NCBI GenBank assembly: GCA_018819325.1
Contig: JAHJQJ010000083.1
Coordinates: 1,067 to 65,066 of the forward strand
Direction of reading: 5' to 3'
Length of the DNA: 64,000 bases
Source: Patescibacteria group bacterium
Lineage (GTDB): Bacteria > Patescibacteriota > Microgenomatia > UBA1400 > MFAQ01
Below are positions 13,528 through 57,556 of this stretch, one piece after another. Within the stretch, counting starts at the first letter, position 1. Each line of letters opens with the position of its first letter. Position numbers and translations under genes: made by a program. Under the pieces are notes generated by a model, which was given only the letters and a program-made list of their open reading frames with translations, did not search any database and had not been told where the DNA came from.

Positions 13528-13738
13528 GGAGTAAGTATAGCATTTGGATATAGTTTGGTGCACCGACCATCTTGTTCAAACCAAGTTAAATCTAGTGGAA
13601 GGTTCTCACATAGCTTGGTTCCCAGATATGACAGGGTTTCTTTCATTTGATTGATTAAGGTTGATAACTGAATTGTATTATAAACTGTGGTGATCTGGGT
13701 GAGCGTGGTGCAACGACCCCCTGAGTAAATCTGGGTAT

Positions 13739-14317
13739 CTATTTTAAATAAACAGCATAAGGAGCTTTTAACTTACTGCTTGCAATTATATCTCGATATC
13801 TTGATTTCATACCTTGGCTATTTTTTTTAACTACACAAACAGTAGACGCTCCTTGTGATGTTTTTACAGATCTAGAATCATCGAAAAAATCCGAATATTG
13901 CCACAGATCAATCTTTATATTTTTAACAACACCAATCTCATCCAAAACAAGCCCTGTTGTATTGCTGTCTACTTTTCCGGTTACCTTAATTTCCTTAGGA
14001 ACATTTAACCAATTAACATTATCGTCAGAAAACTGTTGTGCTTTTGATATTGTTTTGGTTGGTTGGGCACCGCCTTTTTGAGATGGGGCAATAAAAAGAC
14101 AATAAATTTCTTGTGAATTACTAAGGGCAGTTTGACAGATTTGCTGAATTTGTCCTGTTTTAGCACGAAAAGACTTGATCAACCAAAATGTTTTCCCAGT
14201 GTTATTAATCTCTTGTCGTTTTCTATCGAGGATGCCAAAAAGTGTTTCTCCTGCGTGAACTCCCACCACACTTAAAACGAGAAATTTATTGTTTAGGATT
14301 TTTGAGATGTTCATCAC
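13739..14317 (-). CDS. Hypothetical protein (last ORF of the cassette-like array)
   Basis: 192 aa with no recognised domain; followed at 13699-13718 by a partial copy of the tail motif seen in other cassettes. Confidence 0.4.
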   Translation of the reverse strand: MMNISKILNNKFLVLSVVGVHAGETLFGILDRKRQEINNTGKTFWLIKSFRAKTGQIQQICQTALSNSQEIYCLFIAPSQKGGAQPTKTISKAQQFSDDNVNWLNVPKEIKVTGKVDSNTTGLVLDEIGVVKNIKIDLWQYSDFFDDSRSVKTSQGASTVCVVKKNSQGMKSRYRDIIASSKLKAPYAVYLK

Positions 14318-14343: not shown

Positions 14344-14439
14344 CGCCTAACGTTTCGGACTATACGAAGTCCTGATTCTGATTTTATCAGGATTTGGGTT
14401 AAATTTCTTCAAAATTTACCGTATAGTCCGTGTTAGGCG
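14344..14439. repeat. attC-like imperfect palindrome A (CGCCTAAC-GTTT-CGGACTATACG ... CGTATAGTCCG-T-GTTAGGCG)
   Basis: Ends match the integron inverse-core GCCTAAC and core GTTAGGC exactly; 11-bp inner stem; lies 9 nt after the stop of the upstream ORF. Confidence 0.5.
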
Positions 14440-14447
14440 ATGGAAAT

Positions 14448-14726
14448 TTATTCCGCTATACAAATTCTAAAAGTTCCCCAGCCAGTATAGCTTGAGGGGC
14501 GACCTCCAAGCTTACGGCATTCTTCATCATCTTCAACACCTTGATAAATCTTGACCATATATTTCTCTCTAGGCCCAGGACAATAGTCGCTACAAGCAAA
14601 GTGGTCAACAATAGGAGGTTTTTCTATGTCAGTCACCTCTGAACTTTTTGGAACCTTTGATAGAAATACAAAAGCCAAGACGACAATGATTGTTGCTGTG
14701 ATTGTTAAAACAATTAGTTTTTTCAT
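14448..14726 (-). CDS. Small secreted/membrane-anchored Cys-containing protein (cassette ORF)
   Basis: MKKLIVLTITATIIVVLAFVFL signal/TM region then CSDYCPGP...C...C. The longer ORF reaching 14906 is an artefact that reads through the palindrome. Confidence 0.4.
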   Translation of the reverse strand: MKKLIVLTITATIIVVLAFVFLSKVPKSSEVTDIEKPPIVDHFACSDYCPGPREKYMVKIYQGVEDDEECRKLGGRPSSYTGWGTFRICIAE

Positions 14727-14755
14727 AAATTCATTATAAAGGAATAAATTTATTT

Positions 14756-14857
14756 CACATAACGTTTGGGATATACGAAGTTTTTCTGTAGCGTAGTGAA
14801 AGAAAAATTTGGGTGAGGGGCGAGCCGAGCCCCGAACCGTATATCCCTTGTTATACG
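14756..14857. repeat. attC-like imperfect palindrome B (CACATAACGTTT-GGGATATACG ... CGTATATCCC-TT-GTTATACG)
   Basis: Same architecture as A, but the inner stem has a different sequence and still pairs. Confidence 0.45.
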
Positions 14858-14894
14858 CCCAGAACGAAAAGCGATATGATTTCTTATCGCTTAA

Positions 14895-14932
14895 GTGAAA
14901 GTACAACGGGGCGCGACCAAAGGGAGCGAGTT
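14895..14932. repeat. Conserved 38-nt tail motif GTGAAAGTACAACGGGGCGCGACCAAAGGGAGCGAGTT (a second copy is at 17431-17468)
   Basis: Two near-identical copies, each adjacent to an attC-like element. Confidence 0.5.
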
Positions 14933-14992
14933 CAAAAAATATTTTTCAACCTTCACTCTCTTAAGTCTCTCTGGGATAAATTTGTTTTCTCT

Positions 14993-15041
14993 TTTGGGCG
15001 AATGGCAGAGGGGAACCAAAGGGGTGAATGCCTGAGCCCAA
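14993..15041. repeat. Conserved structured motif TTTTGGGCGAAKGGCAGAGGGGAAYYAAAGGGGTGAATGCC (copy 1; copy 2 is at 16179-16231)
   Basis: Two copies, each about 30-110 nt downstream of a cassette ORF stop; nested stems GGGC/GCCC and GGCA/UGCC. Confidence 0.45.
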
Positions 15042-15084
15042 TTCATCTATCGCACTGTCTTTATTTTCAGCTTGGTTGTGTACC

Positions 15085-15882
15085 CTAATTATTACAAAAA
15101 TTGTTTTCAATTGGCTGTTTGATTTCTTTAACAAAGCCACCTGAGTTACCGTCATACCAAAGTTCGTAATAAGGTTGTGACGCCTTATCAGACGATGTAT
15201 CAGTCATTCTGACTTTTAATATAGCTTGATTAGTTTGAATTTCCCAGCCAAAACTTTTATCCCATGAGGTAGATGTGATTCCGTACACTTTTTTAGCAAG
15301 ACAGGGATAGTTTTGTATAGTATATACTCCGGCCTTCTCTTTTAAGAATTCATGATAAGCTATTTTGCTTAGGGTTTTGTAGGAATTTACCTTTATTGCA
15401 GTGGTTGGACCTTGGTAATTCATATCGTCATATTTAGATTTTGGTAAAGTAGTTTTTTCACCAATTACTTGAATGATTAAACCAGAATGACCATCCTCAA
15501 TATTGCCGAGCAAAGGAGTGTAGGATTTCATCTCAGAGTCCCAAAGTTTGTATCTTGGGCCACAACCTTCTGGGATCATGCAATTAGAAACAGTTGTAAA
15601 TATTCCGTAATAAACTTCTCCTGTAACATCGCGATTAACAGCTCCCGAAGATGGTAGTGGGGTTGGTTGTTGATTTTCTAGTGGTTGTTTTACTTGGTAG
15701 GATTTGTATCCTAATACTCCTGTTACACTGATAAGTAGAACAACAAGAGAGATTAATGTCCAAGGTTTTTTCTTAGGAGATGTGGGTTGCTGTGGTGGGG
15801 TTTGTGGTTCTATGGGAGTAGTAGTTGATTGAGGATCAGTAGTTATGGGGATTTGGTCTACTGTTGATTCGTTTGCTTGCAT
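15085..15882 (-). CDS. Membrane-anchored hypothetical protein (Pro/Thr-rich N-terminus, one TM) - cassette ORF
   Basis: 265 aa with no known domain. Confidence 0.45.
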   Translation of the reverse strand: MQANESTVDQIPITTDPQSTTTPIEPQTPPQQPTSPKKKPWTLISLVVLLISVTGVLGYKSYQVKQPLENQQPTPLPSSGAVNRDVTGEVYYGIFTTVSNCMIPEGCGPRYKLWDSEMKSYTPLLGNIEDGHSGLIIQVIGEKTTLPKSKYDDMNYQGPTTAIKVNSYKTLSKIAYHEFLKEKAGVYTIQNYPCLAKKVYGITSTSWDKSFGWEIQTNQAILKVRMTDTSSDKASQPYYELWYDGNSGGFVKEIKQPIENNFCNN

Positions 15883-15982
15883 GTTGTGATAATTGTAGCA
15901 CTTATTTGATTCCCTCTATAGATAACAAATTTGCTTCCCCCTGCTATCAACCTTCACTGGTTGAAAAATATTTTTTGAATTG

Positions 15983-16110
15983 CGTACAACGTTTCTGCGT
16001 ATGCGATGTTTGCCACTGCTATAATATCGCGAAGCGGTAGCAGTGGCAAATATGGGCGTAGGCTTGCGGAGGTACGGAGCAAGCTGTAGCCGCATACGCT
16101 GTGTTATATG
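15983..16110. repeat. attC-like imperfect palindrome D (CGTACAACGTTT-CTGCGTATGCG ... CGCATACGC-T-GTGTTATATG)
   Basis: Same architecture as A-C. Confidence 0.45.
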
Positions 16111-16178
16111 ATGTACATGTTTTCCTTTAGTTTCTTGAAAAGAAACTGCTCTTAAAAAGAATCTGCTTTTATTTTTCC

Positions 16179-16231
16179 GTTTTGGGCGAAGGGCAGAGGG
16201 GAATTAAAGGGGTGAATGCCCGTAGTCCAAA
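16179..16231. repeat. Second copy of the GGGCGAAGGGCAGAGGGGAATTAAAGGGGTGAATGCC motif
   Basis: Direct comparison with 14993-15041. Confidence 0.45.
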
Positions 16232-16344
16232 ACTCCCTGTTCTGCCTTTCTATTTACAGTAAAGCTTCATTAGCCGATGAACAATGAGAGTCTTTTCATA
16301 TTGATTTAAAAAAATCAGCAGATGATTTATTCGCGTATATGACA

Positions 16345-17091
16345 TTAAACGATTTCACAATAACATGGATTAAAAATTTTAATATTTTCCTGCGGATAAC
16401 CTCTTGAATTACACACAATTTTTGTATCCCCAATTTTATAACTTAGCTTCGTATGAACATGTCCATGAATCCATAATTGGATATTGTGAGATAGAATAAA
16501 TTCTTCAAGATTGCTAGCAAATGATGCAGAAAGTACGTCGTTTTTATATTCACAACCAATGGATTGCATACTTGGAGCGTGATGGGTAATCACAACATTC
16601 TTTTCGTGTTTCCTTTTTAGCAATTCACGGGATAACCAATTTTTGGATTTATAGTAAGCGTCTGCCGCAGACAATGGTGAGAATTTTTTGGAAGCTGAAT
16701 TCATTCGAATAATTCTAAAATCATTTATCTGTTGGGTTGCTATAACACTTGCGACATGAAAATCTCCATAAAGTTTAAAATCTGTCCAAAGCGTACAGCC
16801 TAAAAAATTAACCCCATTATATGTAAATACGTCATTTTCAAGAATATGAATATTTGTATTTTTAGCTTGATTCCGAATTTCTTCTAAAATATCTGGATAC
16901 GTATGATGGTAATATTCGTGATTTCCAATGATATACAAGACAGGGACACCAACATCCTGTCTTGTAATCCAATCAATGCCCTTTGCGCCTACATGAATAT
17001 CACCGGCTAATATCAATATATCCGCATCAGTTTTAGGGATTTTGAATTCTTCAAATTCGTTGTGAATATCACTGAGAATGTGGATTTTCAT
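16345..17091 (-). CDS. Metallophosphoesterase (calcineurin-like) - cassette ORF
   Basis: GDIH...GNHEY...ITHHAP...GHVH metal-ligand motifs. Confidence 0.75.
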   Translation of the reverse strand: MKIHILSDIHNEFEEFKIPKTDADILILAGDIHVGAKGIDWITRQDVGVPVLYIIGNHEYYHHTYPDILEEIRNQAKNTNIHILENDVFTYNGVNFLGCTLWTDFKLYGDFHVASVIATQQINDFRIIRMNSASKKFSPLSAADAYYKSKNWLSRELLKRKHEKNVVITHHAPSMQSIGCEYKNDVLSASFASNLEEFILSHNIQLWIHGHVHTKLSYKIGDTKIVCNSRGYPQENIKIFNPCYCEIV

Positions 17092-17278
17092 TTTATGGTG
17101 GTTAAATACTGGCAGTCAAGCCACTTAACACGAGGGCGACATAACAAATATTAAAATTAAAGCGTTTTCGCAACGGAGCGGAGAAAACTCCATATTTCCC
17201 CTCTATATAAAAGAAAAACAAAATCAGATTCTTTTTAAGAGCTGGGGCGATAGCCCCACAAAAGGAAAACATGTATTT

Positions 17279-17393
17279 CACATAACGTTTCTGTATATCT
17301 GATGTCGAAACGCTCTATGCTTGATTTTAGCAGAGCGTGAACGATATGGGTCGAGGAGGTGCAACCGACGAGCCAGATATACAGTGTTATGTG
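17279..17393. repeat. attC-like imperfect palindrome C (CACATAAC-GTTT-CTGTATATCTG ... CAGATATACAG-T-GTTATGTG)
   Basis: 8-bp outer stem and 11-bp inner stem, both perfect; followed by the tail motif at 17431-17468. Confidence 0.5.
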
Positions 17394-17485
17394 TCCCGAA
17401 CAAGGTTGCTAGAATTTTTAAGCAACCGAAGTGAGAGTGCAACGTGGTGCGACCAAAGGGAGCAAGTTGAGTGATATTCTTGAGA

Positions 17486-18337
17486 TCAGGAAAAAAGCAA
17501 GAAAAAAAATACAATCCATGTAATAAAGTATGGAATTATGAATTTCTTTCTTTTTTCTTTCCACTCTAGAAACGCTGGTTTGGTTGCCTTGAACTTGCCA
17601 GGAACTTTTTGGACAATGAAGGTCTTGTAAAGTTCGACCAACATCCGTTCGCCACCCAAACTGGCAACCAATAGTAGCGAATAATTAAAAGTGAAAAAAG
17701 AAAAAATTATGCCCCAAATACCACTAGCGATTGGACTGCGGAAAAACTTGATTCGCTCGAAACCTTCGATGGGCGCATCCTTCCATGCCCCACCACTGGC
17801 GGAACCAACTAGCCCTGCGAAGAAACCCCAGAATAAACCATTAAGTTGGTGATTGCCGAAATCTATCGTTAAAATTGAGGGCATGGAAAAGAGAAGCGAG
17901 ATCAGGAAAAGAAAGGCGACACCGATGAATAGTCTCAGAGACTTATTATCTATTGTGTTGCCAAAAATGTGGAGTCGCGAAGGTATCTTATACTTATCCT
18001 GTTTTTCTTCTCTCACAAAAGCTTTGAATGACTCGGTGAATATACGCTCCAAAGTGACGATAACTGCAAAGACAACTCCTAAGTTGACGCCAGTAATTTG
18101 AAAATATTGAAAGAAGAAAAACAGCAAGATACCGAGCGATGACCCGGCAACAATACTTCTAATAAATCTCTGAGACTGGAAATGCTCATAGAGCGAATCC
18201 TTGTACGCCCCCCAGCATGATGAAAGCAGTCCACTGACTGCTCCGATAATTCCATACTTTATTAATTCCATAATGAAAGTATAGTTGATCGCTACCCAAA
18301 CAACTAGAAGAAATAGTGTAAAAAGAATATCACTCAA
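17486..18337 (-). CDS. Polytopic membrane protein with an internal domain duplication - cassette ORF
   Basis: Two repeats of a G(A/L)VSG...W(G)AYKD...RFIRS-like unit. Confidence 0.5.
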   Translation of the reverse strand: MSDILFTLFLLVVWVAINYTFIMELIKYGIIGAVSGLLSSCWGAYKDSLYEHFQSQRFIRSIVAGSSLGILLFFFFQYFQITGVNLGVVFAVIVTLERIFTESFKAFVREEKQDKYKIPSRLHIFGNTIDNKSLRLFIGVAFLFLISLLFSMPSILTIDFGNHQLNGLFWGFFAGLVGSASGGAWKDAPIEGFERIKFFRSPIASGIWGIIFSFFTFNYSLLLVASLGGERMLVELYKTFIVQKVPGKFKATKPAFLEWKEKRKKFIIPYFITWIVFFFLLFS

Positions 18338-18340
18338 TTA

Positions 18341-18431
18341 CACATAACGTATCCAGCATAAAAGAAGTTTTTGCGAAGCAAAAATTTGGGTGAGTGCCGT
18401 AAGGCACGAACCTTTTATGCTGTGTTATACG
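18341..18431. repeat. attC-like imperfect palindrome E (CACATAACGT-ATC-CAGCATAAAAG ... CTTTTATGCTG-T-GTTATACG)
   Basis: Lies 3 nt from the start of ORF 17486..18337; its loop shares AAAAATTTGGGTGAG-hairpin-GAACC with element B, with a compensating hairpin change. Confidence 0.5.
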
Positions 18432-18462
18432 CTGTTGGTCGCTAAATAAATTGATCATTGTT

Positions 18463-19890
18463 TCACCAGGGAACTGTTCCTTTTTTCCAATATTGTGTTT
18501 GAAGCGATTGCATCAATTCCGACATCTCATTCTCATTCATTACCTGAAGAGTAGTTGCCAGAGCATCTATTGTATAAGATAATGTAATTCCCTCTACTAA
18601 TTGATATACGATCTTCAGTTCGTTTGCTTCATCAGGATATTTTTCTGTAGCAAAAACCCTAAAAGTAGCAGCAGTAATTTCACCCGTGCTGTTAAGAATG
18701 TTAATCAAATCTTGTTTGCATTGGTCTGAGAGATTACTTTCGTTTATAGTTTTTAATATCTCGTTCTTGATATTATCTTCATTTGCTCGCATCTGTTCGG
18801 AAATTTTGTTTAATAATTGAATCCTCCAAGTATGACCAGAAGGCATGTAATAGAATGGCGTTTTGTCAGGAGTATTGAATGAAAGTTTGTAGCCCCACGG
18901 TGCATATGGGATTTCTTCTGTTTGAAAGTATGATGTAAGTTGTACCTCATCATTTCCACCATATTCATTACACATAATTGGCACCTGAAAGTTGTTCTGA
19001 AATGTTTGATACTGCTGCACCTTACTTTGGCTCTCTCCAAGAGATAAGTAAGTATGGAATATATAAACAATGTTGTCTCCAAGGGAAGGTGGATTGAACA
19101 TACTGAGATCATAAGCATAATTGTTGCCATCTAAAAAAATTATGTGCTTATTATCAATTGTGCGAATAGCAGTAATGGCTTGTTGATATAATGAAACAAG
19201 TTGTGTACCTTCTGGTGCTTCTGGTTCATTGAGTAATTCATATCCAACCACTGTTGGCTCATCCTTATACCTTTGTGCCAAAATCTTCCATAAGTTGATA
19301 AATTGTTGCTGATAAGTAGTATTACTCCATAAATAAGCATTCCCATCGCTGTCTGAATGATACGCAGTATTCTGACTACCCGGGGCAACTTGCAAATCAA
19401 TCATAACATAAATTCCATTATTTTTTGCCCAAGAAATTGCTTCATCTAATTTTGTAAGTTGTCCTTCTTGTACATAGCGATGATGAAATGGTAAGCGGAT
19501 AAAATTAAGTCCCATAGATTTTGCACCGGCAAAATCTTCTGCTAAAATGTAATTTGCTAAAATTAAATTAAAGAAATTGTCAACTTCTGTCTTAGGCATT
19601 CTTTTCTCCATCTCATTGCGTAGTTGATGTTCAGGATTATTAGGTAATTCCAATGCTCCACCTTCCCAGAGTAGCCAGCAACCAAAGTTCACCCCTTTCA
19701 AGAATACTTTCTCACCTGATTCATTTACAATATCTTTTCCTTGAGTCTTTAAGAAGGATAAATTTGTAGTGGGTGGTGTAGGTGCAATTATTGTTTCCTT
19801 CTTATTACGACAATAGAAAAAGGCAAACGCTCCAAAAAGAAGCAAAATTACCATTAAAACCCCAATTTTTTTCATATTTTTTCTTTTCAT
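18463..19890 (-). CDS. Glycoside hydrolase family 5 (cellulase/beta-glycanase-like), secreted - first cassette ORF
   Basis: Catalytic acid/base LLNEPEAP and nucleophile IMCNEYGG; N-terminal signal/TM. Alternative start at 19875. Confidence 0.8.
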   Translation of the reverse strand: MKRKNMKKIGVLMVILLLFGAFAFFYCRNKKETIIAPTPPTTNLSFLKTQGKDIVNESGEKVFLKGVNFGCWLLWEGGALELPNNPEHQLRNEMEKRMPKTEVDNFFNLILANYILAEDFAGAKSMGLNFIRLPFHHRYVQEGQLTKLDEAISWAKNNGIYVMIDLQVAPGSQNTAYHSDSDGNAYLWSNTTYQQQFINLWKILAQRYKDEPTVVGYELLNEPEAPEGTQLVSLYQQAITAIRTIDNKHIIFLDGNNYAYDLSMFNPPSLGDNIVYIFHTYLSLGESQSKVQQYQTFQNNFQVPIMCNEYGGNDEVQLTSYFQTEEIPYAPWGYKLSFNTPDKTPFYYMPSGHTWRIQLLNKISEQMRANEDNIKNEILKTINESNLSDQCKQDLINILNSTGEITAATFRVFATEKYPDEANELKIVYQLVEGITLSYTIDALATTLQVMNENEMSELMQSLQTQYWKKGTVPW

Positions 19891-19921
19891 AAATTTACCC
19901 CCTACTTTAAGCGACCAATTG

Positions 19922-19998
19922 CGTATAACTAGGGTTTATGCAAACTTTTTGTTTGGATAAACACTGGGGTTTGCGTGAAATGCAAACTTGTGTTATAT
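19922..19998. repeat. Sixth attC-like/attI-position palindrome (GCGTATAAC ... ATGCAAAC x2 ... GTGTTATAT) between the array and the recombinase gene
   Basis: Same end motifs as elements A-E; internal hairpins GTTTGC/GCAAAC and CAAAC/GTTTG. Confidence 0.35.
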
Positions 19999-20034
19999 TT
20001 TTTGTTAGTAATTACTTACATAATATCATAAATA

Positions 20035-20848
20035 ATGATGAGGGTTCTTGAGAAAACAGACAGGTTGTTGCGATTGAGGGGTTATAGTGCTAAAACGCGA
20101 AAAAGTTATTTGTTATATATTAAAAATTATTTATTATTTGCAAAACTACGGAAGCTACAGGAAAGAGATCGAGCCATTGAGCAATATTTGTTGGATAAAC
20201 AACGTAGAGGACTTGCTCCCCAAACCATAAATCTAGCATTAAATGCTGTTAAATTTATGTACAGAAAGGTATTGGATGACAAAAAACCTATTAAGTTTAA
20301 ATGTACCAAGAGAAACAAAAGATTGCCTGTAGTACTTTCTCGTAATGAAATTCAAAAAATAATTGCAGTGATTCAGAATCCAAAGCACAAACTAATGCTT
20401 TCTTTGGCTTACGCGACTGGACTGCGGGTTAGTGAGGTTGTTAACTTGAGGACTGGAGATCTTGCCTGCGACGAGTTGACAGTACATATTAAAAATGCAA
20501 AAGGGAAAAAAGACCGTATAAGTATTTTCCCTGAAAAACTGATTTCTGATATTACAAATTTGATTAAAGAGAAATCTGTGGATAGTTTTGTTTTTGAAAG
20601 TGCTCGGGGAGGTAAGTTAACCACCACTTCTTTGCAAAAGGTTTTTAGAAATGCTTTGGAAAAATCTAAGATACAGAAACCAGCCACGTTTCATAGTTTG
20701 AGGCACAGTTTTGCTACCCACTTGTCTGGAAAATGGAGTTGATGTAAGATACGTGCAGGAGTTGTTGGGACATGCGAATATTAGAACTACGCAAATATAT
20801 ACTAAAGTGACAAATCCTAAATTAAAAAATATTAAGAGTCCGTTGTAA
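20035..20848 (+). pseudogene. Tyrosine site-specific recombinase (XerC/XerD/IntI superfamily) with a +1 frameshift near 20725
   Basis: ORF 20035..20742 ends ...[16 protein letters not shown]. Shifting one base restores the canonical C-terminus [28 protein letters not shown] with catalytic Tyr, ending at TAA 20846-20848. The ~35-aa IntI-specific extra domain before HxLRH is absent. Confidence 0.6.
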
Positions 20849-20852
20849 AAAG

Positions 20853-20874
20853 ATTCTGGACAAGCCAGAATGAC
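20853..20874. repeat. R1 hairpin repeat ATTCTGGACAAGCCAGAATGAC
   Basis: Further copies at 23024-23045, 30720-30743 (reverse complement), 32029-32050, 39451-39603 (cluster) and 57511-57572. Confidence 0.8.
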
Positions 20875-20897
20875 GGATAAGGAAGTATAATATCTTT

Positions 20898-21659
20898 ATG
20901 AGGATTGATGTTTTGACGCTTTTTCCAGAAATGTTTGAGGGACCGTTTAGTGAGAGTATTTTAAAAAGGGCTCAGGAGGATGGGAAAATTGATATACGGG
21001 TACATAATTTGAGAGACTGGGCGGAAGATAAACATAGGACTACTGATCTGCCTCCGTATGGCGGAGGACCTGGAATGGTGATGAAGATTGATGTGATTGA
21101 TAGGGCGGTGGAGGGGTTGAAAAAACAGATGGATTCCACCCCGGGGGAGACTTCCGCTCCGCTACAGCCACCCGCCGGGGAGAAATCCCATGTGGTGCTA
21201 CTTGACACCAAGGGGTCTGTTTATAACCAGAGGAAGGCCGTGGAGCTTTCTAGGTTTGATCATTTGATATTGATTGCTGGGCATTATGAAGGAGTAGATC
21301 ACAGGGTACATGAGTATGTGGCAGACGAGGTTGTTTCTATTGGTGAGTTTGTTTTAACTGGTGGAGAGATTCCGGCCATGGTGGTGGTAGACAGTGTGGT
21401 TAGACTGGTTCCTGGAGTGCTAGGGAATGCGGAGAGTTTGGAGGAAGAGTCGTATTCTATGATGATGGATTCCACCCCGGGGGTTCGCCGCAGGCGCAAC
21501 ACAACCCCCGGGGAGAAATCCTTGGAATATCCGCAGTATACTAGGCCGGAGGAGTATAAAGACTGGAAAGTACCAGAGGTGCTTTTGTCTGGAGATCATA
21601 AAAAAATTGAAGAGTGGAGGAGGGGTTATTTTTTGGGGAGACCTACAGGAATCAAGTAA
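20898..21659 (+). CDS. trmD: tRNA (guanine37-N1)-methyltransferase TrmD, carrying two in-frame GC-rich insertions
   Basis: [13 protein letters not shown]...LLSGDH are TrmD hallmarks. The insertions encode [20 protein letters not shown] and [20 protein letters not shown]. Confidence 0.85.
21131..21190. repeat. R4 GC-rich palindromic insertion (CCACCCCGGGGGAG-N-GCCACCCGCCGGGGAGA) inside trmD
   Basis: Other copies at 21466-21525 (in trmD) and 25325-25385 (in the surface-protein gene); the GC-rich islands stand out in the AT-rich genes. Confidence 0.7.
21466..21525. repeat. R4 GC-rich palindromic insertion, second copy in trmD
   Basis: CCACCCCGGGGG...CCCCCGGGGAGAAATCC. Confidence 0.7.
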
Positions 21660-22360
21660 ATAATGGTTTCTTCTTCTGGAATTTGCAGGATTTCTTTTAA
21701 TACGTCTTGATCAATATTACTTATTTCTGCCATGCCTAAGCCTAAACTTTCTGACTGTAAGAATAGATTTTGAGTTGCGTGACCTGCTTCTAGGTAGGCT
21801 TCTATTTTGTTTGTGTTGCTGGTGATAATTAAAATTAATGGGGCGTGTTGGAGGGAGTATTGCTTGGTGTTTTCTATAAACAGCTGACGAAGATCAGCCT
21901 TGTATAAAGAATAAAGTTGATGGGCTGGTTGAAGATCCCCTGGAATATATTTATAAAGACCTTGGTCTATATCGGTAACTTGATTGGTTACTGCATAAAT
22001 ACTTAGCGGATAAGCTGATTTTGACGAATAAACGGTGCGACCGCCCCAGTCTACGGTTACACCTTGAGCTGACCAAAGTAACTGAGAGAGGTTGTTAAGA
22101 CTTAATGGTTTGTCTTGAAAACTGGTGTAACTTCGCCAATTATTTAAGGCTTTTTCTAGCGAAACTTTTGAGTCTTTATTTGGATAGGGTAAATCAATTA
22201 AATTGGCGTCTGATTCTTGTTCTGTCTGGGGTAAAGAGAGTGTGGTGGAAGTATGAGTTTTGTTAGTTTTAAAAAGAGAAGCTACCACCAACAGGAAGAC
22301 TATGCCTATGGTAGTTAAAGGAACAATGAAGTCTTTCTTTTGCTTTTTTAGGGCAGGCAT
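21626..22360 (-). CDS. SagB/nitroreductase-family dehydrogenase with an N-terminal TM anchor
   Basis: LLWSAQGVT...[17 protein letters not shown] core of the SagB-type nitroreductase fold. Confidence 0.55.
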
Positions 22361-22366
22361 GTTCGT

Positions 22367-23002
22367 TTAGATAAACGAGCGAATACTGGCTTTTTCTTTT
22401 TGTTCTGTGAACCAAGTGTTGAATTCTTGTTGTAGTTTTTGATCTAGAAGACCAGTTTTAATTTCTTCTGTGACTTCTTCTAATGTTTTAGTTTCAAACA
22501 TGGCTTTATTTTGTATGTAGTATTGAGATACTTCTTCATCGGTGACTTCTAAGTTAAACAAACCTTGGGCCAGTTTCTTTTGGCCAAGGGTGATTGTTAA
22601 CCTTTCTTTTAGTTGATCTAGAGTTAGTCCATACTGAGCTAAAGTGGTTTCGAATACTTCACCACCACCTAGTTGTGTTTTTAGATTGTTAATTTCTTCT
22701 TCTATATCACCTTCAGTAATTTTTATGTTATTTTCTTTGAGCAAGTCTTTTATTAAAGCTTGGTTTATAAGTTCGTTTAGAGTCTCTTGACCATATCTTT
22801 CGGTTAATAATTTGTTTAGTTCAAAGCGACTGATGGGTTGATAGTTGACAGTAGCTACGATGAATTGGCTTTTGTATTTTTTTGCCAAAAGGAATGAGAC
22901 TGAACCAACCAGAAAAACTATAGCAAGGTTTTTGACAAACTTTGATTTTAGGCTTAGTTCTAATTTTTTAATTTTTTTCTTGGATATTTTTATTTTAGTC
23001 AT
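22367..23002 (-). CDS. SurA N-domain-like/PpiC-type periplasmic chaperone-like protein
   Basis: TM anchor then a coiled, Gln/Glu-rich SurA_N-like region; start at MTKIKIS. Confidence 0.45.
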   Translation of the reverse strand: MTKIKISKKKIKKLELSLKSKFVKNLAIVFLVGSVSFLLAKKYKSQFIVATVNYQPISRFELNKLLTERYGQETLNELINQALIKDLLKENNIKITEGDIEEEINNLKTQLGGGEVFETTLAQYGLTLDQLKERLTITLGQKKLAQGLFNLEVTDEEVSQYYIQNKAMFETKTLEEVTEEIKTGLLDQKLQQEFNTWFTEQKEKASIRSFI

Positions 23003-23049
23003 GTTTGTTATGTTATCACAAAGATTCTGGACAAGCCAGAATGACATTT

Positions 23050-23370
23050 TTAATCTTCAAGTGTAATTGAGTCGTTGAATTCGGGCATGAGTGGGTCTGG
23101 TAGTTGGGGGTTGAACTGACCGATTGATTGTTTTAGTGGGGTGAGACTAGAGTCTATTGGAAGTGTGATGGTAGTGGGAAGATCCGCTGGTTTGGGAATA
23201 TTGATTGACTGATTAGAAAGGAAGGCGATTCTTTTACCTATGGCCAGACCAATAACCAAAACCAGAACGGTGATAATTATTGGAAGGTATTTTTTTAGGG
23301 TCTGACCTTTCTGACGGAGCCGTCCGAGGAGAGATCCTTTGAGACTGATTAGGTTTATTTTAATTGACAT
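23050..23370 (-). CDS. Small membrane-anchored hypothetical protein
   Basis: 106 aa with one TM. Confidence 0.35.
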   Translation of the reverse strand: MSIKINLISLKGSLLGRLRQKGQTLKKYLPIIITVLVLVIGLAIGKRIAFLSNQSINIPKPADLPTTITLPIDSSLTPLKQSIGQFNPQLPDPLMPEFNDSITLED

Positions 23371-24118
23371 AATTCTTTTCTAGGTCTACTAAGATATTTA
23401 CTAGTTCAACCTGAAGGGTTTTTATTTGACTTAGATTTTCTGTTTGCTTGCTGTAGAAACTTGATTTGCTGGAGGTGGTAACTTCTGAAGACTTGATTAT
23501 GTTTATACTTGATAAAATTTTATTGTTAATATTGTCTGCTAACTGGGTGATTTTGTCTAAACCTGCGGAGACAGGAGTTAAGGTTTTGTCACTTATTTTG
23601 GGCAAAAGATCATCGTAGGCATTTTTGATATCTGTTTGCAAACGAATTAATATGGCTAATTTATTGGTAGCTAAGGACTTGATAATTTCAGTTTGATAAG
23701 GCGGTTGAGTTGCAAGATACTCTTTGGTGAATTTGGTAAGATCTTCTACATTGACGATATTTTTGGCTAATATTATTTGATTTTTATAAAATTCTTGGGC
23801 ACTAATTAGTTCGCTTTCTGTTTGAAGTATGTAACCTTGAGTAGGGTTTTGAGATCTAATTGAACTTAGAATAACTTCTATATAGACGATTTTTGTTGTA
23901 TCTCTACTTATGATTGTTTGCTTGGCGGCCTGGAGAGCTTTTTGCTGATTGTCTAAGGTGGGATTTTTTTGATTGTCTTCTTTTAAAACCTTGAACTCTG
24001 TATTGTGTTTTCTGTATTGTGTAAGTTGATATTCGTAGTCTGATTGAGGAGAAGTAGCCTGAATACTAGAGGTAGAGAGTAAGATTATAAATAAGAATGA
24101 AATTAATTTAGCGATCAT
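23360..24118 (-). CDS. Secreted hypothetical protein
   Basis: Signal peptide followed by polar repeats. Confidence 0.4.
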   Translation of the reverse strand: MIAKLISFLFIILLSTSSIQATSPQSDYEYQLTQYRKHNTEFKVLKEDNQKNPTLDNQQKALQAAKQTIISRDTTKIVYIEVILSSIRSQNPTQGYILQTESELISAQEFYKNQIILAKNIVNVEDLTKFTKEYLATQPPYQTEIIKSLATNKLAILIRLQTDIKNAYDDLLPKISDKTLTPVSAGLDKITQLADNINNKILSSINIIKSSEVTTSSKSSFYSKQTENLSQIKTLQVELVNILVDLEKNYVN

Positions 24119-25206: not shown

Positions 25207-26445
25207 TCAAATTTTACGCCGTCTGGAAAGGAGATAAAATAGATATGAAAACGAGATAAATATAGACAAAATCAGCATCCAAGTTTTGGGTTTTTCTGTG
25301 GTGGTTTTACCAAGGACTTCCTTAACTTCAGCCACCCCGGGGGAGTCCTTCACTGTGTTACGGCCACCCGCCGGGGAGACTTCCGTTGGTTGCCATGAGT
25401 AAGGTGAACTAAAAGCGGAATCGGCCGAGTTGACCAAGGTAGTTAAATCTGTCAAGGGATCGCTTGCATCAGATGTATCGTCTGATGAGGTTTCGGAGGT
25501 GGTGGTTGTGGATGTTGTGGAAGAAATGTTGTCGAAGGTAACTGGCCTGATTGTTGTGGTCCATTCTCCAGCATTATCTTTAGTTTTTACCTGCAAATAA
25601 TATTGACCGTTTGAGTAATTGTTTGTATTTATCTGACAGGAAATTGAGATAGATGTAGTAGAGTAAATTGTTGCCTGTAGGCAGGTAATAACTAGATTTT
25701 GATTTTCGTCTAGTAAGTTTAACTGGTATTCTGTGATGCCAAAGTCGTCCGTGGCTGAAGCACTGAAGGTTATCTCACCTTTAAGTACCTGATTTTCGTT
25801 TGGAGCACTGATCGTGCTTACTGGAGGAGAGTTGGTTAGTGTGTTGTAGTAGTCTATGTCTAGTTTAATCAGATCTATAATGGATGAGAGGTTAGCATAG
25901 CCGTCGTCACCGTAAATCGAAAGTCTAGTTAATAGATTGTTTAAACTAGTGGCGTTTAAGTAACTTGCTGGCAATGAGACTTGTGAAGTGCTGTAATTAT
26001 TTGGTGTTGCTGGCCAAAGATTGGTAGATAAAACTTCCCAGGTTGAACCATTATCCTTGGAGATTTCTAGTTTAATATCGTAGTTTAACCCCTTTGAGCC
26101 TTGAACTTCGTTTACTTGATGAGAAATTATGAGATTTGAACTTAAAATAGTATCTGTTGATAAAAGATTAGGATCTTCAAAATCAAACATTAAATATCGG
26201 TCTGGGGTAAAGTATATCTGTGGCCAGGCTCCGTTTGCAAAAAGACCCGTATGGTCTTTGATTTGATAGCCTTGGTTGTCTTGAGTGTTTAAGTTGGACA
26301 ACTCTTGATCCGAAAGGCTACAGGTGTAGATGGAGTTGCAAAAATTACCGTCGCTAGCTTGGTCGGTAACGATTGATAAAGAAAACGACTTGGCACTTAT
26401 AGTGGTGGCAAGAGGAAATAACGCTACCACAAGACAGGAAGCCAC
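25207..26445 (-). CDS. Cell-surface protein (signal peptide, Ser/Thr-rich linker, C-terminal TM anchor) with an R4 in-frame insertion
   Basis: GTG start; ...TTSTTTTSETSSDDTSD...; C-terminal KTWMLILSIFISFSYLFYLLSRRRKI. Confidence 0.45.
   Translation of the reverse strand: MASCLVVALFPLATTISAKSFSLSIVTDQASDGNFCNSIYTCSLSDQELSNLNTQDNQGYQIKDHTGLFANGAWPQIYFTPDRYLMFDFEDPNLLSTDTILSSNLIISHQVNEVQGSKGLNYDIKLEISKDNGSTWEVLSTNLWPATPNNYSTSQVSLPASYLNATSLNNLLTRLSIYGDDGYANLSSIIDLIKLDIDYYNTLTNSPPVSTISAPNENQVLKGEITFSASATDDFGITEYQLNLLDENQNLVITCLQATIYSTTSISISCQINTNNYSNGQYYLQVKTKDNAGEWTTTIRPVTFDNISSTTSTTTTSETSSDDTSDASDPLTDLTTLVNSADSAFSSPYSWQPTEVSPAGGRNTVKDSPGVAEVKEVLGKTTTEKPKTWMLILSIFISFSYLFYLLSRRRKI
25325..25385. 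repeat. R4 GC-rich insertion, third copy (encodes ...VSPAGGRNTVKDSPGVAEV...)
   Basis: CAGCCACCCCGGGGGAG...GGCCACCCGCCGGGGAGA. Confidence 0.65.
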
Positions 26446-26518: not shown

Positions 26519-26650
26519 AGTCTTTTTAGTTGCCCGGCGATGATCTATTTTCGCATTCAGTCGCCCGAATACTATCGTCAACGCTGACCTGTTTCACTTC
26601 TGAGTTCGAAATGGGATCAGGTGGGGCCAGATCGCTTTGATCACCGGACA
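26519..26650 (-). rRNA. rrf: 5S rRNA
   Basis: The reverse complement contains CCCACCTGATCCCATTTCGAACTCAGAAGTGAAAC, the universal 5S loop B/C region, and helix I forms between its ends. Confidence 0.75.
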
Positions 26651-27005
26651 GATAAGGAAACCTTGATTTACTTATCTGCACAGTGATAAAGATTTATTTT
26701 AAGGTTCACTTACCCTCTAAAAAGTGAATAGATTAGTATAAGTAGATCACTAATAATTTATCTACTTTTCGACCATTAGTAAGGGTCGGCTAAATACATT
26801 GCTGCACTTACACCTCCCTCCTATCAACGTAGTAATCTCCTACGGGTCTTTCAGTCGCCCGAAGGCGACTATGGATTTCTCATCTTGGGAACGGCTTCCC
26901 GCTTAGATGCATTCAGCGGTTATCACGTACCAATGTAGCTACCCAGCAGTGCTCTTGACAGAAACAACTGGTTCACTAGGGATTGGCTCATCTCGGTCCT
27001 CTCGT

Positions 27006-27309
27006 CATGTACTCCTCTGTTACCAGAGGCATAGACTATACCTTCATCCTCCTAAAAATCTTAGGATAGGATGTTTGCCGTATTATAAGTGTGTATATTT
27101 ATCCATCAAAGATGGAGGAACACTTATCTTCACCTTGAACATTACTTCAAGGATTCAGTCGTTACAGGGATTATCTTATTTTAAAACATGATAATCTTCC
27201 CTCGGTATTGTCCTCTAAAGCCCTGGGACCATGGCTATAATTATAGAGGATTTCACCGATTTGGACAAATTTTTCTTTCTCCACATTACTGTGGAATGTA
27301 GCATTTTTT
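27006..27309 (-). ncRNA. Putative ORF-less group I intron (~304 nt) splitting the sarcin-ricin loop (E. coli ~2655)
   Basis: Removing it restores CTCTAGT|ACGAGAGGACC. The 5' exon ends in U and the intron ends in G; a P1 helix UAGU/GCUA is possible; it shares GGGAAGAU, GACUGA and AUAGUC segments with the second intron. Confidence 0.6.
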
Positions 27310-27344
27310 ACTAGAGACAAACTCCCTCAAAAATCCAACGCTGG

Positions 27345-27390
<46 letters not shown>

Positions 27391-27461
27391 ACGTAGCGCT
27401 TTAATGGGCGAACAGACCAACCCTTGGGAGCTTCTTCACCCCCAGGATGCGCTGAGCCGAC

Positions 27462-27727
27462 CAAATGGCTCCATCTATTACTAGTGGTTTGGACTATATC
27501 TTTCAAAATTAATTACCTTTTCTTATCCTTTTGGTAACTAAATTGAGTTGGCGTGTGTACAGTTCTCCAATGAAGAACTATCTCAATTCCGATTAAATCG
27601 GAATATCAGTCTCTACGGGGATCTCGATCATGGATCGGATCTTCCCACGGGGTTAACCTTTGGTTGTTCATTTCCAAGGCATTCTCCGTTATTAGCCAAC
27701 TTTATCCTCGACATTCGTTCTTGGTTT
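27462..27727 (-). ncRNA. Putative ORF-less group I intron (~266 nt) after the equivalent of E. coli U2504 in the peptidyl-transferase ring
   Basis: Removing it restores ACCTCGAT|GTCGGCTCA. The 5' exon ends in U and the intron ends in G; a P1 helix CCUCGAU/GUCGAGG with a U-G pair at the splice site is read directly from the sequence. Confidence 0.65.
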
Positions 27728-29755
27728 ATCGAGGTAGCGAACTGCGCCGTCGCTATGGACGCTCAGGCGCAACTACTCTGTTATCCCTGGCGTAGCTTTT
27801 ATCCGTTAGGCCCGGAGCTTCCCACGAAGCTCACGAGGATCACTTAGACCTACTTTCGTATCTGCTTGACTTGTTTGTCTCACAGTTAAGCACCCATATA
27901 CCTATATGCTTACACTCCGATTTCCATCCGGAGCTCAGGGTACCTTTGTACGCTTGCGTTACTCTTTAGCAAGCAACCTCCCCAGTTAAACTACCTTCCA
28001 GACAGTGTCCCCGGTGTTGTTTGCAAACACCTTAGGTAAGAAATACATAAAGAAAAGAGAGGTATTCCACTGACGGGCTGAATATAAATATTCAGCCCTC
28101 CCTCCTATTCTCGACAGTTACAATACATATTTCAGTGCCAAGTAGTAGTAAAGCTGCACAGGGTCTTTTTGTCCTGCTGCCAGTAGGCCGCATCTTCACA
28201 GCCATTTCAAATTCGCCGAGCTCTTTCTCAAGACAGTTGAAGGGTGGTTAAACCATTCGTGCACGTCACCAATTAAGTGACAAGGAATTTCGCTACCTTT
28301 GGACTCTTATAGTTAAAGCCGCCCTTCACCGGGGCTTCAATCACAGGCTCAATATCCGAAGACATATCACCCGCTCATTTAACCTTCCGGCAGTGGGCAG
28401 GTCGCAGCCCGTATACTTAAGCTTTCGCTTTGGCACAGACCTGTGTTTTTGATAAACAGTCCCCCCTCAATCATTTGCTGTGGCCCGAATCGTGCAAGCA
28501 CGTTCCGGGCAGGGCATCTCGCATAGCTTACGCCCAGTTAATTTGCCTAGTTCCTTAAGAAAGATTCGCTCGTCCACCTTAGTCTACTCGACCTACCCAC
28601 CTGTGTCGGTTTTCGGTACGGATTGTATAGTTTCTATTTGCGACACTTTTCTCGGAAACTGAAGTCATCCAACTCTCTATTGATTACTCTCAAGATTGTA
28701 TTTACAGTTCGTGTTAACGCTCTAGCGGATTTGCCTACTAGAACTGCCTTACTGCTTAAACAGTGCATGTTCAACGCACTGCTCGGATTATCCAACTTCG
28801 TCATGCCCCAACTTAAAACGAAACTACACAAGGACCGGAATATTAACCGGTAATCCATCGGCTACGCCTTTTGGCCTCACCTTAGGGTCGCCTAACCCAA
28901 TGCTGACAAACATGGCGTTGGAAACCTTGGGTATTCGGTGGGGAAGATTCTCACTTCCCTCTCGCTACTCATGCCGACATTCTCACTTCTTGCCGCTCCA
29001 ACAAGCCTTACAGCTTGCCTTCAATGCTACAAGAACGCTCCCCTACCACTTTATATAAATATAAAATTCTTAAGTTCGGTAGTATATTTTAGCCTCGTTA
29101 TATCTTCGGTCACATATCTCTCGGCTAGTGAGCTGTTACGCTTTCTTTCAAGGATGGCTGCTTCTAAGCCGACCTCCTAGGTGTTTGAGAGATGATGTAT
29201 CCTTTTCCACTTAATATACATTTAGAGACCTTACTTGAAGATCTGGGATGTTTCCCTTTCGCCTCTGGAGCTTAGCCCCCAGACACTGAGTCCCTTGCAA
29301 TAAAACGGGGTATTCTTAGTTTGATTGGAAGTAAAGGTTTTACCCCTCAAATCCATTCAGTGCTTTACCCCCCCGTTTCTTAACAAAAGCCTACGCCTAG
29401 ACGTATTTCGGGGAGAACCAGCTATTTCCGAGTTCGTTTGGCATATTACCTCTAACCACAAGTCATCCGAGCCATTTGCGACTGACATCGGTGCGGGCCT
29501 CCACTAAAACTTAATTTAGCTTCACCCTGCTCATGGTTAGCTCACTCGGTTTCGGGTTTATACCACACAACTTAGCGCCCTGTTAGGACTTGGTTTCCCT
29601 TCGACTCCACTGCGGAGCAGCTTAATCTTGCTGTATGGAATAACTCGTCGGCTCATTCTTCAATAGGCACGCCATCATCCTCGATAAAATCGGGACTCTG
29701 GCTGCTTGTTAGCAATCAGTTTCAGGTACTTTTAAACGGGCTACCAACCCTGCTA

Positions 29756-29794
<39 letters not shown>

Positions 29795-30384
29795 ATAAGA
29801 GTAATTAGTCTTGGACCGTGGTCGGCCCGGATTCAATCTGGAGTTTGCCGTCTCCAGACCTACTTAGGAGTCTGACTATTGTTTTGTTGACAGTTTTGCG
29901 TACAAGACTTTCACTTTCTATGGTCGTCTATTCCAAAACGTTCTGCTACCTTATAAAACAAATATTGTTAGTCCTACAACCCCTGATATAAATACCAGGT
30001 TTAGACTCATCCCTTTTCGCTCGTCGCTTACTAAGGGACTCTCGTTCGATTTCTTTTCCTCTGGGTACTAAGATATTTCAGTTCCCCAGGTTCCCACTCC
30101 GACATAAAGTCGAAAGTACTCCGGTATAAACCGGAGTGGGTTACCCCATTCGGACACCGTCGGATCATAGGTTCTTGCCACCTACCCGACGACTTTCGCA
30201 GGCTTGAAACGTCCTTCATCGGCTCTTATTGCCAAGGCATCCACTGATTGCGTTATGAGTACATAAATTATTATTTGATGCGATCTACTTTTCTAATCTA
30301 TTCACTTTTTAATGAGCAAGTGCTCTGATTTATATAGAGCTAACGTTTTTACCTAAAATTAAGTAAGAAGGCTAGATCTACTGT

Positions 30385-30461: not shown

Positions 30462-30537
30462 TGGTGGACCGTGTCGGGCTCGAACCGACCACCTCATCGT
30501 TGCAAACGATGTGCTCTACCAGATGAGCTAACGGCCC
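30462..30537 (-). tRNA. tRNA-Ala (TGC)
   Basis: The reverse complement GGGCCGTTAGCTCATCTGGTAGAGCACATCGTTTGCAACGATGAGGTGGTCGGTTCGAGCCCGACACGGTCCACCA has a G3:U70 pair, a TGC anticodon and an encoded CCA. Confidence 0.85.
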
Positions 30538-30778
30538 ATTGGCTTCAGCCAAAGGCTGATCGTCCTTGCGGACGAAAAAGCTCCGCATAGCGGAGCTTGC
30601 GCACACAATACAAAAACAGTTTTAAGTTGAGTATAAAAGAAGTTGTTTTGAATTTGTTTGCATAGTTGTTTCCGCTAAAGTGGTATTTTAGCAGAATACT
30701 CTTAAGCTTTCAATCACCAGTCATTCTGGCTTGTCCAGAATCGATTCTTTGTCATCCCGCACTTGATGCGGGATCTAT

Positions 30779-32004: not shown

Positions 32005-32067
32005 GACTTAAGTGTAGCAAAAGAAGAAAGATTCTGGACAAGCCAGAATGACGAAGGAAGATCCTCT

Positions 32068-57488: not shown

Positions 57489-57556
57489 TGTAGTAATTAT
57501 AACGCGTTCTTGTCATTCTGGCTTATCCAGAATCGATTCTGGATGCGTTCGAAGAC

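Follow-up and report, generated by a model that had tools for sequence, protein, structure and literature searches.

The 64,000-nucleotide (nt) stretch of the Patescibacteria group bacterium contig JAHJQJ010000083.1 (assembly GCA_018819325.1, positions 1,067 to 65,066), referred to here as the window, carries at 20035-20848 on the plus strand a gene for a tyrosine recombinase (int) that is interrupted by a frameshift. Directly upstream of int lies a region resembling the attI insertion site of an integron, and upstream of this region are five cassettes, each with a single open reading frame (ORF), bounded by hairpin-forming sequences that resemble attC sites. Together these components probably constitute an integron-like platform for gene capture, which belongs to an integrase lineage lacking the insert characteristic of the integron integrase IntI and which has recently been inactivated in this strain.

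The integrase gene and its frameshift

The recombinase gene comprises the following segments.

20035..20848, + strand: integrase pseudogene, 270 codons after repair (translation, Pfam, NCBIfam, PDB sequence search, DNA alignment)
20035-20724, + strand: frame 1 of the integrase pseudogene, codons 1-230
20725..20725, + strand: inserted T, a +1 frameshift relative to the intact allele of L003/L004 (DNA alignment); also in L001 and L002
20726-20845, + strand: codons 231-270 of the integrase pseudogene, followed by the stop codon TAA at 20846-20848

Without correction, the ATG-initiated ORF (20035-20742, + strand) encodes only 235 amino acids (aa) before a TGA at 20740-20742, and the conserved C-terminus of the recombinase (40 residues) is present in the next frame, up to the TAA at 20846-20848. 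Removal of one base at 20725/20726 (cac ttg T ctg gaa) generates a 270-aa protein. A first-pass annotation of this DNA had placed a +1 frameshift at about 20725 and had given a corrected translation of 271 aa; the frameshift and the recovery of the C-terminus by its repair are confirmed, and the length is 270 aa instead. In the repaired protein the catalytic residues are R131, K156, H220, R223, H246, and Y255, with Tyr255 as the nucleophile, and all six occupy columns that are invariant among intact relatives. H246 and Y255 lie downstream of the inserted T and are out of frame, such that the R-K-H-R-H-Y set is not present in any single frame. Thus, the encoded 235-aa product cannot cleave DNA.

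The closest intact allele, P0124 (270 aa; DNA L003 and L004), falls in the same 90% cluster and reads CACTTG-CTGG where the window reads CACTTGTCTGG. Since this allele does not have the T, the lesion is a 1-nt T insertion at 20725. The gene is also intact in all 80 of the relatives whose loci were fetched, which come from genomes of other Patescibacteria species. The identical insertion is present in the Logan assemblies of SRR26275509 (L001), which is 100% identical to window positions 18439-23742, and of ERR2191545 (L002), whose contig has the same sequence across the frameshift. The truncated product is matched exactly by JGI, ENA, and Logan entries, and three proteins from metagenome-assembled genomes (MAGs) at NCBI (MBU1200792.1, MBU1256820.1, and MBU1457652.1) are N-terminally shorter forms of it; the strain with the dead gene has been recovered in at least five datasets. 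When the window is compared with the intact allele, the ratio of nonsynonymous to synonymous divergence (pN/pS) is 0.12 overall; over the 40 codons that follow the shift it falls to 0.07, with a pS of 0.46. As the C-terminus has evidently been selected through nearly all of this divergence, the inactivation is recent. The best reading of these comparisons is that the frameshift is real as well as recent and that the integrase has been inactivated in this strain.

Programmed frameshifting was considered and appears not to apply: the sequence CAC UUG U CUG offers no codon for slippage or re-pairing, and a stop is reached in the 0 frame five codons on. Within the 64-kb window, tblastn found no paralogue of the recombinase. 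Divergence from the intact allele is mosaic. Across window positions 19915-20225, which cover the attI region and codons 1-64 of int, the sequence is identical to L003/L004 (pS = 0), while pS is 0.26-0.46 in the remainder of the gene, which suggests a recent homologous exchange of the segment containing attI and the 5' portion of int between lineages.

The protein family

The repaired protein contains the Pfam domains Phage_int_SAM_4 and Phage_integrase. Among the profile models, the NCBIfam IntI model TIGR02249 gives 214.2 bits (below the cut-off of 265, with the match split into two stretches) and PRK15417 gives 141.6 (below its cut-off of 435), while the NCBIfam archaeal XerA model NF040815 matches over the full length with 211.3 bits against a cut-off of 220. 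Membership in XerC or XerD, which the first-pass annotation had linked to a housekeeping Xer, is not seen: the protein lies far below both models, with 172.2 bits for XerC (cut-off 335.15) and 181.8 bits for XerD (cut-off 329.6). Thirty relatives scanned with the same models have the same pattern of scores, and all of them match both IntI models; one, P0002, has 214.4 for TIGR02249 and 138 for PRK15417, again below the IntI cut-offs, and 221.3 for the XerA model. A PDB sequence search likewise ranks VchIntIA (IntI4; 2a3v) at 150 bits above XerA (142 and 131) and XerD (84).

The insert specific to IntI (~35-45 residues in the patch III region, between the β-hairpin and HxLRH) is absent from the repaired protein, as the first-pass annotation had proposed. 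Only 58 residues separate KGKKDR from HSLRH, and the HMMER alignment to VchIntIA (2a3v) is in two pieces, skipping IntI residues ~214-239. In an AlphaFold2 model of a 78%-identical relative (269 aa; mean predicted confidence, pLDDT, 85.7), Foldseek identifies VchIntIA as the best match (E = 6e-17), followed by XerA, and the alignment to 2a3v occupies 314 columns for 269 residues. The insert is missing throughout the family, which is very large, with more than 8000 matches; among the matches listed, almost all members are 269-273 aa long. Identity within the family is 55-78% across Moranii-, Peregrini-, Gracili-, Roizman-, Kaiser-, and other Patescibacteria. Judged by these scores, the repaired protein is a tyrosine recombinase that is about equally close to IntI and to archaeal XerA and far from XerC/XerD, and its family is positioned between IntI and archaeal XerA in both sequence and predicted fold. 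In viral contigs that were searched for the family, the closest relatives are only 33-41% identical; thus, the family is not apparently phage-borne.

Members that are 58-60% identical also occur on two contigs labelled archaeal, L056 (a Pacearchaeota MAG contig) and L083 (Altiarchaeales IMC4, a 1.39-Mb contig), each with the attI motif and attC-like sites upstream. These may represent either mis-binning or spread across domains, and they could bear on the numerous attC arrays without an integrase that have been reported in Archaea.

The attI-like site

The region between the array and int contains the following elements.

19929..20005, + strand: attI-like region (synteny with the strain carrying the intact allele, motif conservation, contig starts)
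19929/19930: putative crossover junction TAA(C)/TAGGG, that is, ...GCGTATAAC then TAGGG, 105 nt before the int start codon
19936-19945: direct copy 1 of the attI repeat, TTATGCAAAC
19951-19962: inverted copy, GTTTGGATAAAC
19979-19987: direct copy 2, AATGCAAAC, overlapping the putative int promoter
19971-19999: putative int promoter, with TTGCGT at 19971-19976, 17 nt, then TGTTATATT ending at 19999

When the 190 nt before each start codon are aligned for the 80 loci, most share the layout (ATTTC)nnnTAAC, the junction, T[CG]GTT[TA]TTAT[ACG]C[GA]AA, ~30 nt, and then TTGTATrTTATrCrAAnnnnTGnTAnnnT. The conserved attI thus contains two direct copies of TTATrCrAA, the second of which overlaps a promoter-like sequence with a -35 and an extended -10. 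A consensus scan for σ70 promoters and terminators around attI returned promoters no better than those in shuffled sequence. In most loci the conserved motif starts directly after TAAC, ~75-165 nt upstream of the start codon. The box on the left side of the junction is the one that every attC-like site has at its left end; on the right side, sequence is conserved only beside the gene.

From 19915 rightwards, through attI, int, the hairpin after the stop codon, and trmD, the window and the sister strain that carries the intact allele are collinear. Left of the junction, the cassettes of the sister strain are not those of the window: they comprise a 122-aa ORF and a creatininase, with two sites of the same design between. 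At 23 of the 80 loci the contig ends no more than 260 nt upstream of the gene, against 3/80 downstream of it, and five contigs start within three bases of the (T)AAC/T junction. Such breaks at the junction are as expected if populations differ in what is inserted there.

The exact attI sequence had no match among JGI metagenome contigs. A weak attI-like string, GATAAC/TGAATTGTATTATAAAC, is present at ~13664-13690, to the left of a 192-aa ORF past the last attC-like site; it may be a relic or a chance occurrence.

The cassette array

Five single-ORF cassettes occupy 14345-19929, directly upstream of int, with one ORF in each interval between sites and every ORF on the strand opposite to int. 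The sites are given here with the z-scores of their single-stranded DNA folds.

14345..14438, + strand: attC-like site A, at the distal end of the array, GCCTAAC GTTT CGGACTATACG ... CGTATAGTCCG T GTTAGGC, z -10.2
14757..14856, + strand: attC-like site B, ACATAAC GTTT GGGATATACG ... CGTATATCCC TT GTTATAC, z -3.3
15984..16109, + strand: attC-like site C, GTACAAC GTTTCT GCGTATGCG ... CGCATACGC TGT GTTATAT, z -5.3
17280..17392, + strand: attC-like site D, ACATAAC GTTT CTGTATATCTG ... CAGATATACAG T GTTATGT, z -6.2 (+ strand) and -4.9 (- strand)
18342..18430, + strand: attC-like site E, ACATAAC GTATC CAGCATAAAAG ... CTTTTATGCTG T GTTATAC, z -5.5
18463..19890, - strand: cassette 1 ORF, secreted cellulase of glycoside hydrolase family 5 (GH5), 475 aa
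17486..18337, - strand: cassette 2 ORF, membrane protein, 283 aa, no Pfam match
16345..17091, - strand: cassette 3 ORF, calcineurin-like metallophosphoesterase, 248 aa
15085..15882, - strand: cassette 4 ORF, 265 aa, no Pfam match
14448..14729, - strand: cassette 5 ORF, ~93 aa, N-terminal hydrophobic segment, no Pfam match

All of the sites are built to one design, consisting of (ATTTC)nnnTAAC, a spacer of 4-6 nt (mostly GTTT), a stem of 9-11 base pairs (bp), a variable interior, the complementary stem, a spacer of 1-3 nt (mostly T), and GTTAnnn. In the window they are 89-126 nt long with RYYYAAC...GTTRRRY ends, and at the other loci their median length is 102 nt. They therefore share with canonical attC sites both the RYYYAAC...GTTRRRY boxes and a stable single-strand hairpin of 55-140 nt, and the end boxes of site A are identical to canonical R''/R'. 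The five single-stranded folds (z -3.3 to -10.2) contain an R stem of 7-9 bp, a 3-nt bulge (GTTT opposite T), a perfect L stem of 10-11 bp, and an interior that is often branched. In canonical attC sites the unpaired central spacer is also roughly symmetric and two bases of the L/R stems are extrahelical; this pattern is not found here, where the spacers are mostly GTTT versus T and the L stem is perfect. Within the window, attC-like architecture is confined to 14.3-18.4 kb, the block that abuts attI. Searches of Rfam, in both gathering and E-value modes, returned nothing relevant in the array.

The 192-aa ORF beyond site A (13739-14317) was considered as a sixth cassette; it has no terminal attC-like site and is treated as lying outside the array. 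Cassette 3 is flanked by an inverted repeat of ~75 nt (16103-16177 and 17213-17286) that extends the R boxes, and a similar leader, GGGCGATAGCCC...AAAAC...ATTTCACATAAC, abuts attI in the distant loci L025, L031, L076, and L081. This recurrence suggests a shared module at cassette ends, which could be a promoter, a terminator, or an extended binding site. Repeats of 40-48 nt that are 88-90% identical (14985-15032 with 16173-16220, and 14893-14932 with 17429-17468) are positioned between the ORF ends and the attC-like sites of different cassettes.

Association of the gene with attI and hairpin sites across the family

The 80 loci, with the gene oriented to the plus strand, were scanned for AAC, a 3-6-nt spacer, a 10-bp stem (at most one mismatch), the complementary stem, a 1-3-nt spacer, and GTT. 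The numbers of such stereotyped sites were as follows.

Upstream (169 kb), same orientation: 65
Upstream (169 kb), opposite orientation: 15
Downstream (282 kb), same orientation: 11
Downstream (282 kb), opposite orientation: 10
Shuffled upstream sequence (null): 6

Sites are thus enriched ~10-fold upstream of the gene and in one orientation only. At least one is present in 35 of the 48 loci that have at least 1 kb of upstream sequence. The longest ORFs between sites point away from int in 43 cases and toward it in four, the median cassette is 815 bp, and in the single-cell genome L059 at least seven sites alternate with single ORFs. As a control for circularity, sites were also defined by their flanking motifs alone, blind to the stem. 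Of these flank-defined sites, 70% have L''/L' complementarity of at least 9/10, compared with 4.8% when halves are re-paired between different sites. The stems of 40 sites comprise 31 different sequences; it is the pairing itself that is conserved and not a fixed sequence. The proposal in the first-pass annotation that a non-IntI recombinase lineage services attC-like sites is, on comparative grounds, strongly supported at the level of the family by this association of gene, attI, and oriented cassettes across the 80 loci.

One Roizmanbacteria MAG contains two diverged copies of the gene (L029 and L070), each with its own attI motif. A second subtype of attC-like site, having the spacer ATC and an L stem that begins AGGATT(T/A)..., is found upstream of L012, L013, L016, L022, and L060 and at 1426-1507 of L003, sometimes in the same array as the GTTT type.

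Alternative explanations

The most serious alternative, which we nonetheless regard as unlikely, is that the gene encodes a housekeeping dimer resolvase (a single, XerA-like Xer), that its site is dif, and that the cassettes are parasites of an Xer site comparable to integrative mobile elements exploiting Xer (IMEX) or dif modules. The XerA model is indeed matched over its full length, with some members at the cut-off, and conservation is very high (55-78% identity across classes). In addition, the attI core has 11-(7/8)-11 inverted arms with inner ATAA/TTAT, like dif. In the XerH/difH and XerS/difSL systems, moreover, the site adjoins the recombinase gene. Against a resolvase, however, stand the inactivation of the gene in a strain recovered from at least five datasets and the two diverged copies in the Roizmanbacteria MAG, each accompanied by an attI motif. 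There is no inflection of GC skew at the locus, and on three near-complete contigs the gene is located at 8%, 33%, and 95% of the length, a weak indication given that the contig origin is not known. Furthermore, oriented, hairpin-bounded, single-ORF cassettes that diverge from the gene are the defining layout of an integron and are unlike known IMEX arrays. The recombinases of candidate phyla have been given an Xer-like role in the literature (PMC8138268), and a housekeeping role and an integron role could be mutually compatible.

It is less probable still that the frameshift is an artefact of sequencing or assembly and that the integrase of this genome is intact and active. Such an error would be in keeping with the strong purifying selection downstream of the shift (pN/pS 0.07) and with the intact gene in 80/80 relatives, but the extra T is located outside any homopolymer and is shared by SRR26275509, ERR2191545, the JGI and ENA records, and the three NCBI MAG proteins. 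An artefactual T is unlikely because an insertion outside a homopolymer recurs across separately assembled datasets. As the nearest intact allele is ~5% divergent, the frameshifted contigs also are not mis-assemblies of that allele. Consequently, of the possibilities raised by the first-pass annotation, a sequencing error in an active minimal integrase is disfavoured, and a decayed recombinase beside a static array, with H246/Y255 lost, is the best reading for this strain. Least credible of all is the idea that the hairpins are generic intergenic palindromes, either terminators or similar to repetitive extragenic palindromic (REP) sequences, whose proximity to a recombinase gene is coincidental and which are not its substrates. 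The window does hold an unrelated, abundant REP-like family, GTCATTC...GAATC, one copy of which comes just after the int stop codon. Yet the attC-like sites of the window occur only in the block abutting attI, and across the 80 loci they are enriched ~10-fold upstream in a single orientation. The sequence of their end boxes, ATTTCnnnTAAC, recurs at the junction, right beside the conserved attI, and it is at this junction that contigs break.

Several observations weigh against an integron-like platform. Recombination of these sites by the family is inferred. The family stands at the XerA equivalog cut-off, which P0002 passes (221.3 versus 220), and the attI core looks dif-like when set beside E. 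coli dif. The L stems do not have the extrahelical bases of classical attC sites, and the interior is often branched. In 13 of the 48 loci whose upstream sequence spans at least 1 kb, the simple scanner detects no site. A consensus promoter scan did not identify a cassette promoter, Pc, near attI/intI, although some cassettes may have their own promoters. Complementarity of the R boxes in the window does not discriminate between cassette-wise and site-wise pairing (35/40 versus 33/40), and therefore the position of crossover rests only on where attI conservation starts and where contigs end. Finally, Xer-like recombinases of candidate phyla have been treated as probable substitutes for Xer (PMC8138268).

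A possible mechanism of cassette recombination

An integron-like platform at this locus would consist of the recombinase gene, a divergent, double-stranded attI-like site that overlaps the int promoter, and the five single-gene cassettes with their attC-like ends. An 11-bp motif, TTATryGAwGT, recurs in R' plus its flank and, inverted, in R'' plus its flank; it is also present in the L'' arm and in the second attI repeat, and it makes up attI's right arm, 7-8 bp from TAA/C. The enzyme would bind this arm motif of ~11 bp. The junction formed by attI and the end box of the first cassette resembles a dif-like core of 11-(7/8)-11. One strand of an attC-like site would fold into the R stem, the 3-nt bulge, and the L stem, and once the bulge is extruded the folded strand would rebuild this same core. 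Strand exchange would then take place at TAA/C (G/TT on the other strand), allowing circular cassettes to be inserted or excised as in classical integrons. By analogy with integrons and with CTX-phi/XerCD, a single strand exchange between the folded cassette site and attI would be completed by replication. The reactive strand would be marked by the bulge and not by the two extrahelical bases that the IntI insert reads; perfect L stems without extrahelical bases fit an enzyme without that insert. Since the local integrase is dead, the five-cassette array would be frozen unless another copy acts in trans.

Comparison with known systems

The closest parallel is the sedentary integron of Vibrio cholerae, with VchIntIA and its attC sites, the V. 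cholerae repeats (VCR). Both have a recombinase gene with a divergent, adjacent attI, and both have a unidirectional array of single-ORF cassettes that mostly appear to lack promoters. In both, an imperfect palindrome with RYYYAAC...GTTRRRY boxes (in site A, GCCTAAC...GTTAGGC) closes each cassette, the stems covary between sites, and close strains differ in their cassettes; VchIntIA is also the best structural match. In contrast, the integrase described here is without the IntI domain of ~35-45 residues and falls below the cut-offs of the IntI models, its sites have a 4-nt versus a 1-nt spacer (hence a 3-nt bulge), a perfect L stem, and an interior that is often branched, and the hosts are Patescibacteria. 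The IntI-specific domain recognises the extrahelical bases, and activity is reported to require it (Messier & Roy 2001, as cited in PMC9668308).

Archaeal XerA/dif (Pyrococcus abyssi 4a8e, Thermoplasma 5hxy; NF040815) is similar in protein length (~270-290 aa) and domain layout, in the full-length match near the model cut-off (211-221 versus 220 bits), in the absence of the IntI insert, and in having a single recombinase, presumably a homodimer on inverted arms. However, XerA resolves dimers at one chromosomal dif and has no cassette array, whereas here the site abuts an array of oriented hairpin cassettes, two copies of the gene are possible, and the gene is dispensable in this strain. With CTX-phi and the pdif modules of Acinetobacter, the locus shares the insertion of foreign DNA by an Xer-type enzyme at a dif-like core. 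As is proposed for the present sites, a folded single strand of CTX-phi mimics a double-stranded site and only one pair of strands is exchanged; each pdif module is a discrete set of genes with recombinase sites at its borders. Those elements differ in using the host XerC/XerD, in carrying phage genomes or plasmid modules, and in having no unidirectional, gene-adjacent array of single-ORF cassettes with their own hairpins.

In Archaea, integrons and attC-site clusters that have no integron integrase (CALINs) have been described in 75 genomes, with 539 attC sites and 6 IntI (Ghaly et al. 2022, PMC9668308). These resemble the present arrays in belonging to uncultivated lineages and, for the most part, in having no recognisable IntI, and L056 and L083 are labelled archaeal. 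The six reported IntIs, however, carry the additional domain, and an integrase without the insert was not proposed (PMC9668308). The 'Cand' subgroup of simple tyrosine recombinases, which are related to Xer and occur in candidate phyla (Smyshlyaev et al. 2021, PMC8138268), probably includes the present family but was described by sequence only, with no attI/attC context. Integron integrases are defined by the extra domain, considered necessary for the recombination of folded attC sites, and tools such as IntegronFinder use it to detect them; IntegronFinder 2 requires an IntI-specific profile (PMC9024848). In the literature searched, coverage of which was incomplete, we found no report of integrons or of attC arrays tied to a recombinase in Patescibacteria.

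Other repeats and elements in the window

The GTCATTC...GAATC palindromes were considered as a candidate for the array and rejected: they are scattered over the entire window on both strands and represent a separate, REP-like family. The cassette array proper is upstream of int at 14.3-19.9 kb. The REP-like hairpins (GTCATTC-N8-36-GAATC) number 13 copies, against 0.16 expected, between 1746 and 57832, and are mostly intergenic. Examples are 20852-20874, 23023-23045, 30720-30742, 32030-32052, 39473-39496, and 57512-57534, with clusters at 30.7, 39.5, and 57.5 kb. The sister strain keeps the copy directly after the int stop codon. These hairpins and the attC-like sites are unrelated. A second family of short palindromes, ACAGAAAGGAC(N)GTCCTTTCTGT, is found seven times between 39659 and 49458, at the ends of genes, and is terminator-like in appearance.

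A GC-rich segment starting GATTCCACCCCGGGGGAG is found twice in frame inside trmD (21132-21188 and 21468-21485), where it encodes stretches of the DSTPGE...PGEKS type, and an 81%-identical copy of 53 nt is located at 25332-25384, inside the ORF at 25207-26445. It looks like a palindromic element that is tolerated within coding sequence, reminiscent of the Rickettsia palindromic elements. The 23S rRNA gene (26756-30266) contains a group I intron (27013-27341, - strand), as is typical of genomes of the candidate phyla radiation (CPR); nearby are a 5S rRNA gene (26532-26648) and tRNA-Ala (30462-30537).

Implications

CPR genomes are tiny, and the routes by which accessory genes like the cellulase and phosphoesterase found here enter them are poorly understood. 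We lean towards the view that the insert-less XerA/IntI-like family is the working integrase of an undescribed class of integron, widespread in the CPR and possibly present in some DPANN/Altiarchaeal genomes, whose attC hairpins are marked by a 3-nt bulge. If so, the IntI-specific domain would be no prerequisite for the recombination of hairpin cassettes, and the family would be either a living intermediate between Xer/dif and the classical integron or an independent invention. Current integron surveys would miss such platforms or label them as integrase-less arrays, and the family could account for part of the CALINs of uncultivated lineages. The array in this window is to be read as recently frozen and not as active. 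More generally, gene capture of the integron type would extend to the candidate phyla radiation, and the family offers a concrete, testable model of how integrons may have originated from Xer/dif-like systems.

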